This document shows positions 3,293-31,804 of a stretch of DNA of 33,429 nt, one piece after another; position 1 is the stretch's first letter, and each line of letters starts with the position of its first letter. A model generated the notes under the pieces. The model saw only the letters and a program-made list of their open reading frames with translations, searched no databases and was not told the DNA's origin. This DNA is from a virus: the IMG/VR virus record IMGVR_UViG_3300028591_000058; one strand, 5' to 3'. Position numbers and translations under genes: made by a program.

Positions 3293-4887
<1,595 letters not shown>

Positions 4888-4888
4888 T

Positions 4889-5110
4889 ATGAAAGATGAA
4901 TTAGTCGAATGTGCTTTCAATCAACAAGCTAAAAGGTCAAATTGTGTTGCATACTGTGAAAATCATAAATGCTATTTAACTATATTACATTTAAAAAATA
5001 TGAAATGTTTACAGAAACAATGCAATTATTTAAGAAAAGAAACTACACATAAATTTTGGCTTGAACGAGAAGAAAAAAAGAAAAAGAAAAGAGCAAATAA
5101 AAATGTATGA
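4889..5110 (+). CDS. Small Cys-rich hypothetical protein with a Lys-rich tail
   Basis: The ATG at 4889 follows the GGGGG RBS (4879-4883). The ORF-track start at 4871 lies inside the upstream gene. Seven Cys residues. Confidence 0.5.
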   Translation: MKDELVECAFNQQAKRSNCVAYCENHKCYLTILHLKNMKCLQKQCNYLRKETTHKFWLEREEKKKKKRANKNV

Positions 5111-5270
5111 TGAAAAAGATTATTTAAAATATCTAATAGACAAAGTAGAAGAAAATCATAATGAAAATAATTTTCTTGAAGAAAAAATTTATCAGGATTG
5201 TTTAGATAAATTTAGATTGATGTTAAAGAATAAAAGACAATTAAATTATTATAAAAGAGGTAGAAGATGA
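5103..5270 (+). CDS. Hypothetical protein
   Basis: ATG at 5103 (ATGTATGA overlap with the upstream stop) is preferred over the TTG-type start at 5061. Confidence 0.4.
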   Translation: MYDEKDYLKYLIDKVEENHNENNFLEEKIYQDCLDKFRLMLKNKRQLNYYKRGRR

Positions 5271-5501: not shown

Positions 5502-5918
5502 ATGAGTAAAATAGAAGCATTAAAAGAATTAAAACATTGGAAAGAAACAAATAATGAAAATGGTGTTGTATGGCTTCCTTTATTTGCAGTTGAAAATATT
5601 GAAGAAGCATTGGAGGAATTAGAACAGATTAAGGAAACAAAACCTAGTGAAGCGATGAAGTGTTTGCATACAATAGCATTTAATCTTTCGTTTATAATAG
5701 GTGTTAATTTTGAAAATGAAATTGAAACTATTAAACAAGCATTATTAAAGGCACAAGAGCAAGAAAAGGTATTAAATGTTATTAAAGGAAAAATAATTTG
5801 GAATGAAAATGATAAATTAATGTGTGGTAGATATGCCGACACTGAAATAGAACTTGAAGAAGAAGATTTTGAAAATAAAGAAGAATTTAATACATTAAGA
5901 GGTATGTTAGATGACTAA
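5502..5918 (+). CDS. Hypothetical protein
   Basis: 138 aa ORF immediately after the upstream stop. Confidence 0.55.
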   Translation: MSKIEALKELKHWKETNNENGVVWLPLFAVENIEEALEELEQIKETKPSEAMKCLHTIAFNLSFIIGVNFENEIETIKQALLKAQEQEKVLNVIKGKIIWNENDKLMCGRYADTEIELEEEDFENKEEFNTLRGMLDD

Positions 5919-6246
5919 ATATAAATTGCCTTTACATATTAAAAATTATGTTAAATGTGAATTGTATAATTTTAATAAAAATAAAGTATTATTAAAAGAC
6001 TTGCAGAAGCAAAAAGAAAATGAAATTAATACAAGAACATTGTTGATTGCTACACAAAAAATAAATATGATTGAAAATGTTGTAAATAGATTATCAAAAG
6101 AAGAAAAAGAATTAATAGAAATTATATTTTTCAATAAAACAAATCAAGTCAAAGCAGAAGCATATTATTACATATCTAAAGACGCTTATTATAATATGAT
6201 GAATAAAATGTTATATTTAACGGCAATCGAATTTAATTTAATCTAA
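5911..6246 (+). CDS. RinA/ArpU-type late-gene transcriptional activator (putative)
   Basis: 111 aa. The ELYNFNKNK motif and the C-terminal ISKDAYYNMMNKMLYLTAIEFNLI resemble the RinA family. Position is just upstream of the HNH/terminase late region. Confidence 0.5.
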   Translation: MTKYKLPLHIKNYVKCELYNFNKNKVLLKDLQKQKENEINTRTLLIATQKINMIENVVNRLSKEEKELIEIIFFNKTNQVKAEAYYYISKDAYYNMMNKMLYLTAIEFNLI

Positions 6247-26762: not shown

Positions 26763-28502
26763 ATGGCAACAAGTAATAATTTTTCAACAACCAATCAATA
26801 TATAAAATATAGAATTATAGTCACAGAGAATTCAACAAGTGTTGCAAATAACACATCTAATATTACGGTTAAAGTTCAAGTATGGCGAACAAATACAGGT
26901 TATGAAACATACGGTAGTGGAACGTGTTATGTAAATATTGACGGAATACAATATAATCAAGCAATTACTACATCACAAAAGTTTACATATAATTCTTATA
27001 CAGAAGTATTTTTAAAGACTTTAAATATTACGCATAATCAAAATGGTAGTAAATCATTATATGTATCATCATATATAGACCATAGCCGTTTTGATAGTAA
27101 TACACAGGGTTTTACTGTAAATTTAACTAATATACCAAGAGGGGCAATTATAACAAATGCACCTAATTTTACAGACACAGGAAATCCGACAATAACTTAT
27201 TCTAATAGTGCAGGAAGCCAAGTGACATCATTACAGGCTTGTATATCTCTTACAGGCTCAAATGATGATATACCATATCGTGATATACCTATTAATGGAA
27301 CATCTTATACATTTAATCTTACAAGTTCAGAAAGAAATATATTATTAAATGCAACAAGTGGTAAAAGTAGAACAGTTTATTTTTATATTAAAACAGTTTT
27401 AGCAGGTAATACAATATATACCAATAAAGCGGTGACATTTAGTGTTGTAAATGCAAATCCGACAATAAGCTCTATTACATATCAAGATACAAATTCAACT
27501 ATTACATCTATTACAGGTAATAATCAATGGATTGTAAGGAATAAATCAACATTACAGATTACATTAAATTCATTACAGGCTCTTAAAGGGGCTACACTTT
27601 CAAGTGCAACAGTAAATATTAATGGTAATAATTATAATTTCAGTGGTATTTCAGGGTCAAGTATAGTAAGTGCTAGTTTAAATATTGGAACACTTAATAT
27701 ATCGTCAAATATAAATGCAACTATAACGTTGACAGATAGTAGGGGTTTTGTGTCAACTTATACAAAGGCAATAACTATACTAGATTATCAAGACCCTTAT
27801 TCAACAATCACTTTAGCCCGTTTAAATAACTTTTATACACAGTGTAATTTAGAAGTTGATTGCACTTATTCAAGCCTAAATAATACGAATTCTATAACTA
27901 TACAATGGCAAGCTAAAAAGATTAGTGATAGTGCATACGGTAGCTTAACAACTATTCAAAATAACACGGCAACAACAATTAATTTAGATAATGCTTATCA
28001 ATGGAATGTAAAGATAATTACAACAGATAGTTTAGGCACATCAGTAAATTATGTATTATTTGTTGATAAAGGAATACCATTATTTTTCGTTGATAAAGAT
28101 AAAAATTCAGTTGGTATAAATTGCTTCCCAAGAGAAGAAGAAAGTTTAGAAATCGGCGGAATGGTCGTCAATGGTGTAGTTCTTGCAGAGAATACAAAAG
28201 AAACTGCAAATGTAAAATTAATAGATGATGTAAGCAATTATAAATTTATAGACATTCAATATAGGGACAATGACAATACAGTAAATTCTGTAAGAGTTTA
28301 TGACCCGAACGGGAAAACGGCGTATTTAATGATTTCTTACCCTTATCAAAATGGTGTGACATATATTAAAGCCTGTTTAGTATCAATATCAGGTAAACAA
28401 ATTACGCCGATTAATTATTCAAGTATGACAATAAGAAGCGGGCAATCACCGACGATTGTAAATTCAAACTATTGTTATATTACAAAGGTCATAGGCTATT
28501 AA
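26763..28502 (+). CDS. Receptor-binding / tail spike-like structural protein (DUF859-like N-terminus)
   Basis: 579 aa, Asn/Ser/Thr-rich. The N-terminus FSTTNQYIKYRIIVTENSTSVANNTSNITVKVQVWRTNTGYETYG resembles the siphovirus DUF859 family. It is the last structural gene. Confidence 0.55.
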   Translation: MATSNNFSTTNQYIKYRIIVTENSTSVANNTSNITVKVQVWRTNTGYETYGSGTCYVNIDGIQYNQAITTSQKFTYNSYTEVFLKTLNITHNQNGSKSLYVSSYIDHSRFDSNTQGFTVNLTNIPRGAIITNAPNFTDTGNPTITYSNSAGSQVTSLQACISLTGSNDDIPYRDIPINGTSYTFNLTSSERNILLNATSGKSRTVYFYIKTVLAGNTIYTNKAVTFSVVNANPTISSITYQDTNSTITSITGNNQWIVRNKSTLQITLNSLQALKGATLSSATVNINGNNYNFSGISGSSIVSASLNIGTLNISSNINATITLTDSRGFVSTYTKAITILDYQDPYSTITLARLNNFYTQCNLEVDCTYSSLNNTNSITIQWQAKKISDSAYGSLTTIQNNTATTINLDNAYQWNVKIITTDSLGTSVNYVLFVDKGIPLFFVDKDKNSVGINCFPREEESLEIGGMVVNGVVLAENTKETANVKLIDDVSNYKFIDIQYRDNDNTVNSVRVYDPNGKTAYLMISYPYQNGVTYIKACLVSISGKQITPINYSSMTIRSGQSPTIVNSNYCYITKVIGY

Positions 28503-28513
28503 GAGGTGACATT

Positions 28514-28849
28514 ATGGAAAATTGGGCGATAGGACAAATTTTTATAGTCATTATGGCAGTTGCAGGATTAATCACTGCGATTGGTGGGGCAACTGCGGTT
28601 TTAAAAAGGTGGTGGACTAATTCAAAAGGTATGAAAAATCAAGAACAAATAAATAAGCTAGATAAAAGAGTTGAGAATGTAGAGCTAAAAACCCAAAGAT
28701 TAGAACGTCATCAAGACGAACAAGAAGAATTTACAAAAATTATGTGTAATTCTATGCTTGCTCTTTTAAATCATTCTATTACAGGAAATAATATCGCAAA
28801 GCTAAAAGAAGCGGAAGAAGAAATAAAGCAGTATTTAATTAATAAATAG
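28514..28849 (+). CDS. Membrane-anchored coiled-coil protein, holin-like (BhlA/UviB-like topology)
   Basis: The ATG at 28514 follows the AAGAGGTGA RBS. N-terminal TM segment IGQIFIVIMAVAGLITAIGGATAV, then a coiled coil. It occupies the usual lysis-gene position after the RBP. Confidence 0.4.
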   Translation: MENWAIGQIFIVIMAVAGLITAIGGATAVLKRWWTNSKGMKNQEQINKLDKRVENVELKTQRLERHQDEQEEFTKIMCNSMLALLNHSITGNNIAKLKEAEEEIKQYLINK

Positions 28850-28893
28850 GGCTAGAATTAATTTTTACATCATCAATGAATATTTTATCAAAT

Positions 28894-28926
28894 AAAAAAA
28901 GAAAAGGGCTTAAATGCCCTTTTTTA
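28894..28926. terminator. Bidirectional intrinsic terminator between the convergent + late operon and the - moron genes
   Basis: AAAGGGC (28903-28909) pairs with GCCCTTT (28916-22) around a 6-nt loop, flanked by an A-run upstream and a T-run downstream. Confidence 0.75.
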
Positions 28927-29193
28927 TATTGCCTTAATGAATTCTAATGCTTCTTCAAAATTCCTAAATGTGCCTTTATCTAATTTTACATATTCTTTAG
29001 TGCCTATCTTATGACCGTCTAAAGACCAATAATTTACATCTTCGCCATAGCAATTTAACCAATGCCTTAAATCAAATTTTACATCACCTTTTGTAAAAGT
29101 ATAACCATAGTTATTTACTAACATATAGCTTTCAACATTTTCACAACCTGCATTTTTTAATTCTTGCTCTTTATTAAATACTAAATTACTCAT
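28924..29193 (-). CDS. Hypothetical protein (moron gene next to attP)
   Basis: 89 aa; GAGGT RBS; no recognisable motif. Confidence 0.6.
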   Translation of the reverse strand: MSNLVFNKEQELKNAGCENVESYMLVNNYGYTFTKGDVKFDLRHWLNCYGEDVNYWSLDGHKIGTKEYVKLDKGTFRNFEEALEFIKAI

Positions 29194-29235
29194 TTTTATT
29201 TACCTCGCTTTTTAATTCTTTAATTGTCATCTTGA

Positions 29236-29379
29236 TTACCCCCTGTATTCAACATACCAATCTTTACCGAAATCATTACTTAATCTTTCTGCAACATAAT
29301 TCATTTTTGCAATAGATACATCTTCGCAATTTTGCCATTCACAATCAATTCCTTTAATTACATATCTAAATTGTTTCAT
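29236..29379 (-). CDS. Small hypothetical protein, 47 aa (not in the ORF track)
   Basis: My translation: MKQFRYVIKGIDCEWQNCEDVSIAKMNYVAERLSNDFGKDWYVEYRG. A GAGG RBS (agaggaatagaatATG) precedes it, and it is the first gene downstream of the near-consensus promoter. Confidence 0.45.
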   Translation of the reverse strand: MKQFRYVIKGIDCEWQNCEDVSIAKMNYVAERLSNDFGKDWYVEYRG

Positions 29380-29426
29380 ATTCTATTCCTCTATCTTTCT
29401 GTAAGCCCCTTTACCTTACTAATTTC

Positions 29427-29454
29427 ATTATACGCCTTTTTTTAAGTAATTCAA
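29427..29454 (-). promoter_or_regulatory. Near-consensus sigma-A-type promoter driving the two minus-strand moron genes
   Basis: Minus strand reads TTGAAT (29454-29449), a 16-nt spacer, then TATAAT (29432-29427), about 45 nt upstream of the ATG at 29379. Confidence 0.6.
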
Positions 29455-29579
29455 TAGTTTTTTAAAGAATATTTTTATTTTTTTAAATATTTTGTTTATT
29501 TTATAAAGTGATTTAATGATTTTGCTTTAATTGTGTAGGCTTATCAAATATTCAAAAACTTTGAATTTTTATCATAATC

Positions 29580-29900
29580 CAAACATAGAAGTTCAGAGCA
29601 GAGCGAAATTGGATTTCTTGTTTTTGCGAAAGAAAAAGCCCTACGAATAGAGCTTAAAAAATAGAAGTTCGTCACGTCGCTTCATCTATCAATCTTTCAC
29701 CTATGTTATGTAAGCATTGAATAACGCTAGTCCATATTCCCTTACATAGCCCATTACCTAGCCAAGCCTAAACCCATACCCGTTATTTTGAATTGGTCGT
29801 TCTGTTCCCCAATTTGACGGTGTAAGCGTAATAGGTGAAATACATTTAGCACCGTGTTGACTTTGTGCGTCGGCTCAACAAGACCTTATGTTTATTAATG
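29580..29900. ncRNA. ORF-free, GC-enriched block; candidate structured non-coding RNA (strand undetermined)
   Basis: No ORF over 17 codons in any frame. My hand-counted G+C is about 37-47% per 60 nt, against about 8% in 29461-29520. The plus strand is C-rich. There are six short hairpins and a 10-bp direct repeat (29585, 29661). Confidence 0.25.
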
Positions 29901-29938
29901 GTAAACTGTATGCTTTAAAAACCAATTATTAATATTAT

Positions 29939-29986
29939 AGTGCTATCATAAACTACCTTATGTAAAAGGCAGTAAATGATGACACT
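29939..29986. other. Candidate attP core: 48-bp imperfect inverted repeat
   Basis: AGTGCTATCATAAACTACC, a 10-bp spacer, then GGCAGTAAATGATGACACT. The arms match at 14/19 positions. It lies about 45 bp beyond the serine recombinase stop codon. Confidence 0.4.
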
Positions 29987-30007
29987 ACTTATACTAATAT
30001 ATATTAA

Positions 30008-30030
30008 GGAAAAAGTAAATACATTTTACT
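30008..30030 (-). terminator. Weak AU-rich intrinsic terminator at the end of the recombinase gene
   Basis: Minus strand AGTAAA-ATGTA-TTTACT hairpin (30014-30030) overlaps the TAG stop and is followed by TTTTCC. Confidence 0.35.
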
Positions 30031-31495
30031 AAATCCTTAAATATATTTTTAATTCAATCGGTTTGTCGTTTGCTATTTGACCTCTTGTTGATGTAGTCTT
30101 TGTATATTCTATTTTATCAATAAATGATTTCAAGATTTCGTTTTTCTGTTTGCCTGTTAAGTTCCAATATTCATCTAATACCTTTTCTAATATAGGTATA
30201 GTTCTTAATGCTTTTTCTTCATCATCAAATGAAATATTGTTTAAACCCTCTAAATTCGATTTTAAGGCGTTTAATTCACTCTCTAGGGTATTTACACGTT
30301 TAAGGTATTTTTCTTTTGTATAAATGCCCTCTTCTAACATTTCACAACATCTATCAATCATAGTTTCTTTTTTTGAAATTTCTTTTAATAGGATTGATTT
30401 TTCATTTTCGATTTGTTGCTTTTTCTTATTAAGTTCTTGACCTGTATTTTCTAAAAAATAATTAAAGTTCTGTAATTCTTCTTTTAATTCATCAATTAAT
30501 TTATGCTCTACCAATTCACAATTAGATGATATATTACCACAATATAACGGACATCTATATACTGTTGTCCTTTTATCATCACTTTTAGTAAAGCGTGACA
30601 TAGTTCTTCCACAATTACCACATTTCAGGATTGTTGCAAGTGGATTTACTAATTCTTTATTATTTGTTGTTTTACATTCACGTTGTTTTAACATTTCTTG
30701 CACTACATAAAAAGTTTTTTCATCAATAAGTGGTTTATGCTTACCCTTAATACTGTTAGCTTCCGCCTTTTTAGTATTACAATTTACATAGCCTATATAA
30801 ACTTTATTAGACAAAATTCTTTTAATGGCTCTATTCTCCCAACGTTGTTGATTAATTAGACCTTTTATATTGTTTTCTGTTAAATAACGTCTTAAATCAC
30901 CTAGTCCCCAATTATCATAAGCAAATTTATTAAATATTAATCTTACAACATCGGCGTTTTCATCTTCAACTAAAACAAACCCTTTATCTATTCTTTCTTT
31001 AGAATAGCCAAAAGGCGGGGTAGTTCCTATAAAATACCCCTCTTTCTGTGCTTGCTTTCTTCCCCTTAAAAGCCGTCTATTAATGATTTTATATTCACGC
31101 CTAGACATAAATAATCCAAACTCGAAAAAATCTTCGTCAAAATCATTATCACTTGATAAATCATATATTTTATTTAATGTTAAGATTTTAGTTTTAGATT
31201 TCTTAAAAATTTCTAATATTTCGGCTTGGTCGATTTGATTACCTCTTGATAAACGTTCAATTTCAATAACAACAATACCCTCGTATTTTTGTTTTGCGAC
31301 ATCTTCAAGTAGTCTTTGCATTTCAGGTCTATTAGCTATATTTTCACCCGATACAACTTCTTTATAAATTTCTTTAATAATTAAATTGTTTCGCTTGCAA
31401 TAATCTAAAAGCATACGTTCGTGTCTTGCTAAAGTTTCTTCTCTTGTTTCTTCTTGGTCGTCACGTGATTTTCTTAAATAAATTGCTACATTCAT
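30029..31495 (-). CDS. Large serine recombinase (phage integrase)
   Basis: 488 aa. Resolvase-type N-terminus (VAIYLRKSRDDQ, with the catalytic Ser context), a recombinase domain, a zinc ribbon (CGNCGRTM ... YRCPLYCGN) and a long C-terminal coiled coil. Confidence 0.9.
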   Translation of the reverse strand: MNVAIYLRKSRDDQEETREETLARHERMLLDYCKRNNLIIKEIYKEVVSGENIANRPEMQRLLEDVAKQKYEGIVVIEIERLSRGNQIDQAEILEIFKKSKTKILTLNKIYDLSSDNDFDEDFFEFGLFMSRREYKIINRRLLRGRKQAQKEGYFIGTTPPFGYSKERIDKGFVLVEDENADVVRLIFNKFAYDNWGLGDLRRYLTENNIKGLINQQRWENRAIKRILSNKVYIGYVNCNTKKAEANSIKGKHKPLIDEKTFYVVQEMLKQRECKTTNNKELVNPLATILKCGNCGRTMSRFTKSDDKRTTVYRCPLYCGNISSNCELVEHKLIDELKEELQNFNYFLENTGQELNKKKQQIENEKSILLKEISKKETMIDRCCEMLEEGIYTKEKYLKRVNTLESELNALKSNLEGLNNISFDDEEKALRTIPILEKVLDEYWNLTGKQKNEILKSFIDKIEYTKTTSTRGQIANDKPIELKIYLRI

Positions 31496-31804
31496 TTATG
31501 CTTCCTTTCTTGATGACTGTATAAATTGGGTCACAGTTCTTATTACTTGTAATTCTTCCGTTGAGTAATTATCAACGTAAAAACTTATTTTTTTAGTTTC
31601 ACCATAAATCAATTCGTCTAACGTAATATGAAATAAATTACATATTTTTCTTAATATGCTTAAAGATACATTATCGCACCCTTTAGAATACCACGCCGTT
31701 ATTGTTGGTTGTGTAATACCTATACTTTTCGCCAATTCACTTTTCTTCATATCGTGTGTGTCTAATAGTTGTTCTAAATTCTCTAAAAATCTCATATCTT
31801 CCAT
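31496..31804 (-). CDS. XRE-family HTH repressor (CI-like), lacking a peptidase domain
   Basis: 102 aa. HTH segment KKSELAKSIGITQPTITAWYSKG. Divergent from the Cro-like gene and abuts the integrase start. Confidence 0.75.
   Translation of the reverse strand: MEDMRFLENLEQLLDTHDMKKSELAKSIGITQPTITAWYSKGCDNVSLSILRKICNLFHITLDELIYGETKKISFYVDNYSTEELQVIRTVTQFIQSSRKEA

Follow-up and report, generated by a model that had tools for sequence, protein, structure and literature searches.

In phage lambda, retroregulation of int by the sib element (sib/tI) involves one long hairpin, a substrate of RNase III, which overlaps a terminator. Typical prophage small RNAs are short and act by base pairing, with little conserved tertiary structure. 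ROOL and GOLLD are large, ornate, prophage-associated bacterial RNAs of unknown function that measure ~580 and 800 nucleotides (nt), respectively (Rfam; PMC5737381), and the bridge RNA of IS110, which belongs with a DEDD recombinase, has loops complementary to target and donor DNA (PMC11208160). Here, we examined a 33,429-nt stretch of viral DNA (IMG/VR record IMGVR_UViG_3300028591_000058; this whole stretch is hereafter the window), in which an initial annotation had proposed that the block at 29580-29900 is a candidate structured RNA beside a phage attachment site (attP) and a serine recombinase gene. Homologs of the block and covariation among them support this reading. The block is very probably a conserved gene for a structured non-coding RNA of ~270-340 nt on the minus strand, with a predicted span of 29573/29628-29917 and a predicted core, comprising helices P1-P5 and a pseudoknot, at 29707-29880. 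The RNA family is new: Rfam 15 lacks it, its known members all come from contigs of uncultured gut and rumen phages, and it accompanies a single clade of large serine integrases.

The family falls within a known kind, that of phage-borne structured non-coding RNAs, and its cassette arrangement and integrase link are its unusual aspects. Like ROOL and GOLLD, the RNA is phage-borne, free of open reading frames (ORFs), multi-helical and pseudoknotted, was recognized comparatively (in their case partly from rumen metagenomes) and appears to be a stand-alone gene. However, it matches neither of them in sequence or structure, its core is ~175-215 nt, and its link is to a serine integrase gene (int) and an attP-like dyad rather than to tRNA genes. 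Whole-library scans of Rfam 15 likewise gave no match to ROOL, GOLLD or Lacto-int, which the initial annotation had named as candidates. No family reached its gathering score in the window or in 17 related loci (related loci are designated L001 and so on), and scans of the window copy, the L021 copy and the L005 cassette at expectation (E) values up to 10 returned only chance-level matches (E of at least 0.2) driven by the terminator hairpin. In geometry the RNA resembles lambda sib, as a structure downstream of int that lies beyond a putative attP and that integration would uncouple from int; it differs in its five-helix pseudoknotted fold, in the serine rather than tyrosine recombinase, and in being set apart by terminator-like hairpins in at least four lineages. 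With small RNA and lysogenic-conversion ('moron') cassettes at prophage ends, the RNA shares a position between late genes and the putative attachment site, a terminator of its own, in some members a promoter-like site of its own, and variation of the cassette among close phages, but here 40 or more pairs covary, long unpaired stretches are invariant, and the slot was not seen empty at any inspected locus. The IS110 bridge RNA is likewise a structured non-coding RNA beside a recombinase gene and its recombination site; in contrast to it, the RNA described here shows no complementarity to the dyad and accompanies a serine integrase, not a DEDD enzyme. GenBank phages had no DNA match to the window region or to the L021 copy, the closest integrases of cultured phages being at most 37% identical, and searches of open-access literature found no description of an integrase-linked RNA or of its conserved sequence words.

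Conservation and covariation of the RNA

Between the stop codon of int (30029) and an ORF of 47 amino acids (aa; 29379) lie 649 bases without a credible ORF. Only three ORFs of at least 30 aa (39, 43 and 32 aa) fall inside this gap, all with TTG or GTG starts, and a 37-aa TTG-initiated ORF overlaps its edge at 29380. Stop codons fill all six frames under translation tables 11 and 4 alike, and an alternative genetic code was rejected since no ORF arises when TGA is read as Trp. None of these four ORFs matched Pfam, and the three inner ones had no match in PHROGs. The statement in the initial annotation that 29380-30028 is ORF-free was therefore borne out. Its hand-counted G+C contents proved exact (37, 37, 37, 47 and 43% per 60 nt across 29581-29880; 8% at 29461-29520; 28% at 29941-30000), as did the plus-strand C bias (21 C and 5 G in 29730-29785). 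The G+C content of 29580-29900 is 39.3%, compared with a mean of 29.3% for the window, and 0.23% of 321-nt segments get that high. Folding of the single sequence was not significant (z = -0.43 on the minus strand and -1.91 on the plus strand) and slightly favored the wrong strand. Because single-sequence folding is uninformative here, the evidence beyond chance comes from comparison with relatives and not from a list of hairpins. G+C-enriched, ORF-free islands in A+T-rich phages can yield new RNAs despite an unremarkable single-sequence folding energy.

Relatives were gathered through exact-protein look-ups and pattern-based integrase searches, through a profile search of genomes and viral contigs, and with a degenerate DNA pattern. 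In near-identical phages (L001-L004) the 649-bp gap is 96-100% identical. Loci with integrases only ~50% identical have an ORF-free, G+C-enriched block of 300-400 nt located ~100-150 nt past the int stop codon, and in the profile-search loci this block is plainly homologous to the minus strand of the window, with compensatory changes seen by eye. With the degenerate pattern, which represents the best-conserved part, 3 copies came from viral contigs and 10 true copies from metagenomes; four further matches, G+C-rich and coding-like, were discarded. A looser pattern, AAAAACGNNNACGGGTYGG, was abandoned after 29 of its 30 matches in viral contigs turned out to be chance. Distinct homologs of the window RNA, hereafter class A, number 21, all from the uncultured gut and rumen phage contigs mentioned above.

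The upstream neighbor of the RNA is always int. Wherever a locus extends far enough upstream, a homolog on the same strand, ~45-97% identical to the integrase of the window, ends 100-300 nt before the RNA. All 10 true metagenome matches are in phage-like contigs, with int present where upstream DNA is available, and none is free-standing in chromosomal sequence. A covariance model built from the alignment of 15 sequences described below scored the window copy at 194.7 bits, the match beginning at 29917. The model also found the RNA after integrases that had been fetched independently of it (87, 67, 64, 60 and 56% identity), as well as a divergent variant in L009, and it found no RNA after three GenBank phage integrases (35-38% identity) or after those of L017 (35%) and L025 (26%).

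To derive the fold, 15 distinct sequences were aligned with MAFFT, blind to structure, and folded with RNAalifold; the helices were then written down and the pseudoknot was added. In this alignment, 94.0% of pair cells are paired; a shift of the 3' partners by 1-3 columns lowers this to 33-43%. Changes on both sides were found at 31 of the 46 pairs, those of the pseudoknot counted in, and 0 of 500 column shuffles reached the observed values. When 21 sequences were aligned to the covariance model, and hence in an alignment fitted to it, 95.6% of cells are paired and 40 of the 46 pairs are compensatory; across both alignments, the slid-partner control gave 31-43%. Covariation among homologs, which the initial annotation had proposed as a check on its reading, is thus evident at 94-96% pairing.

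Read along the minus strand, the fold begins with hairpin P1 (UGUUGA/UCAACA; 29880-29875 with 29860-29855), all six pairs of which are compensatory and which bears the conserved loop GCCGACGCACAAAG. The long hairpin P2 (29818..29854) consists of an outer stem, CGGUG/CACCG (29854-29850 with 29822-29818), and an inner stem (29847-29841 with 29830-29823) that is weaker in the window copy; its 12 pairs are 94.8% paired, and 10 have changed on both sides. P3 (AAUUGG/CCAAUU; 29814-29809 with 29796-29791) is paired in 100% of cells, with five of six pairs compensatory. Its near-invariant 12-nt loop, GGAACAGAACGA, follows the pattern GGAAC(N)GAACG(R), the columns of which are invariant or nearly so. 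A purine-rich joiner, AAAAUAACGGGUAUGGGUUUAGGCUUGGCUAGGUAAUGGGC (29749..29790), has many invariant columns (ACGGGUA..GG..CUUGGCU.GGU.AUGGGCU) and holds the 5' strand of the pseudoknot (29762-29758 with 29730-29726), the 3' strand of which lies in the P5 loop. The pseudoknot covaries at three of its five positions and occurs in four versions: GCUAG/CUAGC, GCUCG/CGAGC, GCAAG/CUUGC and GUCAG/CUGAC. P4 (8 bp; 29748-29741 with 29714-29707) encloses P5 (5 bp; 29739-29735 with 29723-29719); compensatory pairs number eight of eight in P4, where 99.4% of cells are paired, and four of five in P5. An additional 5' hairpin, P0, is present in G+C-richer members and absent from the window copy.

Four of the six short helices listed in the initial annotation are conserved and covary, namely TGTTGA/TCAACA (P1), ACGGTG/CACCGT (P2), AATTGG/CCAATT (P3) and GCTAG/CTAGC (the pseudoknot). 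The other two did not hold up: GTTAT/ATAAC is not the conserved pairing, its bases belonging to P4 and P5, and the palindrome at 29611-29640 is the U-tract of the terminator opposite a downstream A-tract. A pairing of GCC in the P1 loop with the invariant GGCUU was dropped, showing no consistent covariation by eye. A likeness of the P3 hairpin of L021 to signal recognition particle (SRP) RNA was also set aside, given that the stem covaries away in other members and that Rfam scans were empty. A 10-nt word of the minus strand, AAATGTATTT, occurs both just past the int stop codon (~30015-30024) and in the apical region of P2 (~29838-29847); being unconserved in relatives, this recurrence is probably due to chance.

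Strand, ends and the attP-like dyad

The strand of the RNA, which the initial annotation left open, can be assigned as minus, like that of int, because the direction of the terminator, the G-U bias and the uniform orientation relative to int all point that way. The helices contain 51 G-U pairs versus 11 A-C mismatches on the minus strand, and all homologs share the orientation of int. A terminator scan called 2 sites in the region where 0.3 were expected, and the sole terminator-like site near the block faces the minus strand. This intrinsic terminator (29628..29655; site 29655-29636) comprises the stem-loop AAGCUCUAUUCGUAGGGCUU followed by UUUCUUUC, and its 3' arm, AGGGCUUUU, is found in every complete class A homolog that was aligned. 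The C-rich loops suggested in the initial annotation to act against Shine-Dalgarno sequences would require the plus strand, whereas the RNA is the G-rich strand.

At the 5' side, a conserved leader, UUUAAAGCAUACAG...AAUAAACAUAAGG (29884..29919, minus strand; pattern UUUAAAGCAUAYAG ... AAUAAACAUAAGG), precedes P1; either a promoter or the start of the RNA lies within it. Between the dyad and the RNA, L035 and L042 have a terminator-like hairpin with a U-tract (seen by eye and not called by the scan), and in L030 and L081 a terminator-like hairpin, again seen by eye, lies directly upstream of the leader. These hairpins imply that the RNA needs its own promoter in those four lineages. A promoter-like TTGAAA / TGTATAAA is situated ~10 nt upstream of the RNA in L042, where the scan lists TTGAAA-18-TAAATT, and in L035 a promoter-like site recognized by eye, TTGGAG / TGTATAAC, ends ~10 nt before the RNA.

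At the 3' side, the core is followed by a variable segment (29656..29706, minus strand) with a conserved (A)AGCGA motif and the first copy of a direct repeat. Past the terminator comes a conserved segment (29573..29627, minus strand) made up of an A-tract, a UCGCU motif, the second repeat copy and GUUUGGAUUAU. Conservation runs ~55 nt beyond the terminator and ends sharply at 29573, and a longer read-through form that includes 29573..29627 is possible. Adjacent to this, at 29543-29572, a 31-nt segment of the window is replaced by unrelated sequence in the otherwise 96% identical L004, which marks the 3' boundary of the conserved unit; the segment itself contains a weak A/T-rich hairpin with a U-rich run behind it.

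The repeat noted in the initial annotation, ATAGAAGTTC at 29585 and 29661, is confined to these two sites within the window. Its minus-strand form is GAACUUCUAU, with copy 1 at 29670-29661 and copy 2 at 29594-29585, such that the two copies flank the terminator. An equivalent repeat was present in 12 of 13 relatives in a first test and in all 16 testable relatives in a second, 34-41 nt after P4 and with a spacing of 75-80 nt (89 in one case). The repeated word varies by lineage (CUGAAUUAUUC, AGAAUAAUCGUU, CGUUGUAAUCA, AACUAAUAUA). Since the word differs between lineages yet its copies match within a phage, the two copies evolve in concert. Pairing of the copies with a common upstream partner is unsupported, as no complementary partner was found. 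Several minimum-energy folds include a long-range helix that spans the terminator and closes the 3' domain; it was rejected, being at or below the 5% level of a shuffle control in only 3 of 13 members. RNAalifold returned nothing on this poorly alignable 3' region.

Between int and the RNA lies an imperfect dyad of 46 bp, GTGTCATCATTTACTG-N14-TAGTTTATGATAGCAC (29940..29985), that is a putative attP. The dyad was present wherever the intergenic region was inspected, and equivalent dyads with ATCAT...ATGAT arms occupy the same place in diverged relatives, including those with integrases only ~50% identical. An imperfect inverted repeat of about 40-50 bp beside the integrase gene is characteristic of the attP of a large serine integrase, and the 46-bp dyad fits this description. 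Its size, symmetry and position suggest that the dyad at 29940-29985 is likely the attP of the serine integrase. No integrated copy, attL, attR, attB or host was found, int, dyad and RNA being contiguous at every locus examined. Integrase homologs numbered 1328 at E <= 1e-80, and no contig carrying one of the best 120 of these 1328 exceeds ~40 kb. Among these 120, the phage lineage was seen only as phage-sized contigs and not within long chromosomal contigs. Some contigs have been assigned to genome bins of Christensenellaceae, Bacilli or Clostridia, which constitutes weak evidence as to the host.

Exchanged cores and possible roles of the RNA

The slot occupied by the RNA held an ORF-free cassette at every inspected locus of the integrase clade and was never empty, and these cassettes do not all share one core. 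In L005, which represents class B, the integrase is 97% identical to that of the window and the flanks of the gap are retained (window 30028-29860 and 29542-29380). Between them is a different 456-nt ORF-free, G+C-enriched core (5636-6091), which has a separate terminator of like orientation and a folding z of -6.3. L079, with an integrase 78% identical to that of the window, shares the RNA of L005 (~4640-5120). Identity between the two class B copies is 76-81%, with five compensatory pairs, and a 66-nt insertion in a hairpin loop sets them apart. A pattern search for class B recovered only the contig already known. Another different ORF-free, G+C-enriched core (class C) is located downstream of a related integrase in L006-L008 (~5600-5990), and yet another (class D) in L081-L083 (~3300-3700). 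No Rfam family was matched at gathering score by classes B, C or D.

Several elements around these cores are held in common. The leader is shared by cassettes of classes A, B and D, with class B retaining the window leader in L005, and P1 is kept in class B and D cassettes. Both class B copies retain a repeat-terminator-repeat-GUUUGG tail, and class D combines the leader and P1 with a repeat-terminator-repeat tail; by eye, the other cassette classes also carry such a repeat. The interleaving of classes over a range of integrase identities suggests that cores have been exchanged between phages. With less confidence, the leader plus P1, together with the repeat-terminator-repeat tail, can be taken as an expression frame shared by the unrelated cores of classes A-D. 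An extension of this idea is that the attP-proximal slot is a dedicated RNA-cassette locus, in which at least four unrelated, independently folded and exchanged cores in a shared frame serve as an RNA-based arsenal (defense, counter-defense or superinfection exclusion) or as integration-state-dependent regulators or cofactors of the serine integrase. We consider this extension doubtful; if true, it would be a kind of system undescribed for serine-integrase phages. The unrelated RNAs of sister phages in the same frame suggest a logic of RNA cassettes at the prophage end that can be studied directly.

Taken together, the best explanation of the locus, and one that we hold with reasonable though far from full confidence, is a stand-alone structured RNA in an accessory slot. 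The RNA would be a transcription unit of its own, neither a leader nor part of the int mRNA. A leader is disfavored by the lack of any conserved gene downstream, and inclusion in the int mRNA by the terminator-like hairpins that separate the two in four lineages. Genes past the RNA differ among members, some of which have small ORFs on the same strand, including those for a pentapeptide-repeat protein and a DnaJ-domain protein, and members of the G+C-richer subgroup have a convergent gene next. In temperate phages of Firmicutes, the stretch from the late genes to the attachment site is the usual home of accessory genes, and the RNA would sit in such an attP-proximal 'lysogenic conversion' slot, which would form one end of the prophage. 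It may act as a folded molecule, through a protein or small-ligand partner that reads the invariant single-stranded purine-rich segments. Folded RNAs of such size and complexity, here ~46 bp (40 of them covarying) with a pseudoknot and extended unpaired stretches that do not vary, usually perform a dedicated biochemical task, for instance protein or ligand binding or catalysis, and to our knowledge RNA families this complex yet missing from Rfam are now uncommon. This mode of action, a stand-alone accessory RNA working through invariant unpaired segments, is proposed tentatively, with the balance falling slightly short of even.

Several observations weigh against the stand-alone accessory RNA. 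No match to the sigma-70 consensus was found upstream of the window copy on the minus strand, and no promoter was identified in the G+C-richer subgroup either, where the RNA could come about by read-through from int. An optional accessory gene would more probably be present in some phages and missing from others, so a slot found filled at every inspected locus fits an integrase-linked or essential role better. The co-varying repeat around the terminator is not accounted for by this model, and a role in trans is a default inference from genomic context. Lastly, the counts from 21 sequences derive from an alignment fitted to the covariance model, as those from 15 sequences do not.

The principal alternative is that the RNA regulates int according to integration state, by a logic like that of lambda sib. 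In the circular genome, an RNA on or near the int transcript would tune the stability or expression of the int mRNA, and upon integration at the dyad the RNA would end up ~33 kb off, at the opposite end of the prophage, so that integrase levels would change. The order of int, dyad and RNA, which was held on one strand at every checked locus with enough upstream DNA, would suit this alternative, as would the lack of a clear terminator or promoter between int and the RNA in the window or the G+C-richer subgroup. Moreover, some structured cassette occupies the slot at every inspected locus of the clade, and either its leader-P1 region or its 3' tail is the shared one. However, co-transcription with int was rejected where the apparent intrinsic terminators of L035, L042, L030 and L081 (terminator-like hairpins, with U-tracts, by eye) intervene between int or the dyad and the RNA, excluding it from the int mRNA there. 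The ~175-nt pseudoknotted core, with dozens of invariant unpaired bases, far exceeds what a processing hairpin needs; L005, despite its 97% identical integrase and nearly identical dyad, uses an unrelated core; and the assignment of attP is itself putative. We regard this alternative as unlikely.

A second alternative casts the RNA as a cofactor of recombination, which would either act as a directionality factor made of RNA or, by binding the serine integrase or its attachment sites, serve as a guide or scaffold. Its strict co-occurrence with one integrase clade and with the dyad is consistent with this, and no recombination directionality factor was identified in the window, where no systematic search for one was made. 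A guide of the bridge RNA type was rejected on the evidence of 12 members. Across these, no part of the RNA matched the dyad region or its complement in a consistent way, and the longest such matches measured 6-10 nt and fell at inconsistent positions. The exchange of cores among phages with near-identical integrases also argues against a specific fit between integrase and RNA. Large serine integrases are autonomous for integration, and all directionality factors known to us are proteins. A cofactor role is highly improbable. Large serine integrases are heavily used in genome engineering, and we know of no RNA partner or RNA-level regulation for any of them.

Comparably improbable is a cis-acting leader, of the riboswitch or antitermination kind, that controls read-through of the terminator at 29655-29636 into the minus-strand ORFs at 29379-29236 and 29193-28924. 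The arrangement does recall an aptamer-like core with a terminator after it, and in the A+T-rich subgroup genes on the same strand come farther on. Conservation past the terminator, along with the second repeat copy there, would suit short and long forms, and the invariant GGGCU of the core is, by eye, the same as the sequence of the 3' arm of the terminator. A riboswitch or leader was nevertheless rejected for want of a conserved class of downstream genes, these being unrelated among members and convergent in the G+C-richer subgroup. The 47-aa ORF, moreover, is ~250 nt away and has a good promoter of its own (29454-29427), no partner of the repeat was found, and the long-range closing helix is not significant.

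Explanations without an RNA gene (a DNA-level element such as recombinase accessory sites or an origin, captured host DNA, a decayed protein gene, or chance) are barely credible and already largely refuted: although the G+C content above that of the rest of the phage could suggest foreign DNA, the direct repeats of conserved spacing could be protein-binding sites, and host copies are not fully excluded in that the genome collection was not scanned with the RNA pattern, compensatory changes and a strand-specific G-U bias (51 versus 11) would not arise from a double-stranded DNA site, a pseudogene or chance, there is no ORF or protein-family match, the 10 true metagenome matches are all in phage-like contigs with none free-standing in a chromosome, and no fragment of tRNA, transfer-messenger RNA (tmRNA), SRP RNA or RNase P was detected. 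Specifically, ARAGORN called 0 tRNA or tmRNA genes in the window, and Rfam scans detected no SRP RNA or RNase P fragments. A protein sponge of the CsrB/RsmZ type was also rejected, as only about four GGA motifs were counted by eye (one each in the P5 loop and at the P4/P5 junction, the other two in the P3 loop) and the window copy had no Rfam match.

Gene surroundings in the window

The window phage is temperate and siphovirus-like. Its large serine integrase gene (30029..31495, minus strand) encodes 488 aa with the Pfam domains Resolvase, Recombinase and Zn_ribbon_recom and matches PHROG 95 (integrase) at E = 2e-100. A gene for a CI-like repressor (31496-31804) is located upstream of int. On the other side of the RNA, the plus-strand tail genes stop at 28502. 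The interval 28472-29379 encodes a plus-strand protein of 125 aa of unknown function, followed by the minus-strand ORFs of 89 aa (29193-28924) and 47 aa (29379-29236), neither of which has a family match. No endolysin or holin was recognized after the tail genes in this interval, which was the part of the genome scanned for lysis genes.

The minus-strand promoter match ahead of the 47-aa ORF (TTGAAT-16-TATAAT; 29454-29427) was rated good, and the extremely A+T-rich stretch upstream of it (29461-29520) is kept in L004, L005 and L024. At the opposite edge of the gap, a 16-nt inverted repeat (30004-30040), with arms 5 nt apart and 81% complementary, spans the stop codon of int. On the minus strand, this repeat would give an A/U-rich hairpin at the extreme end of the int coding sequence.

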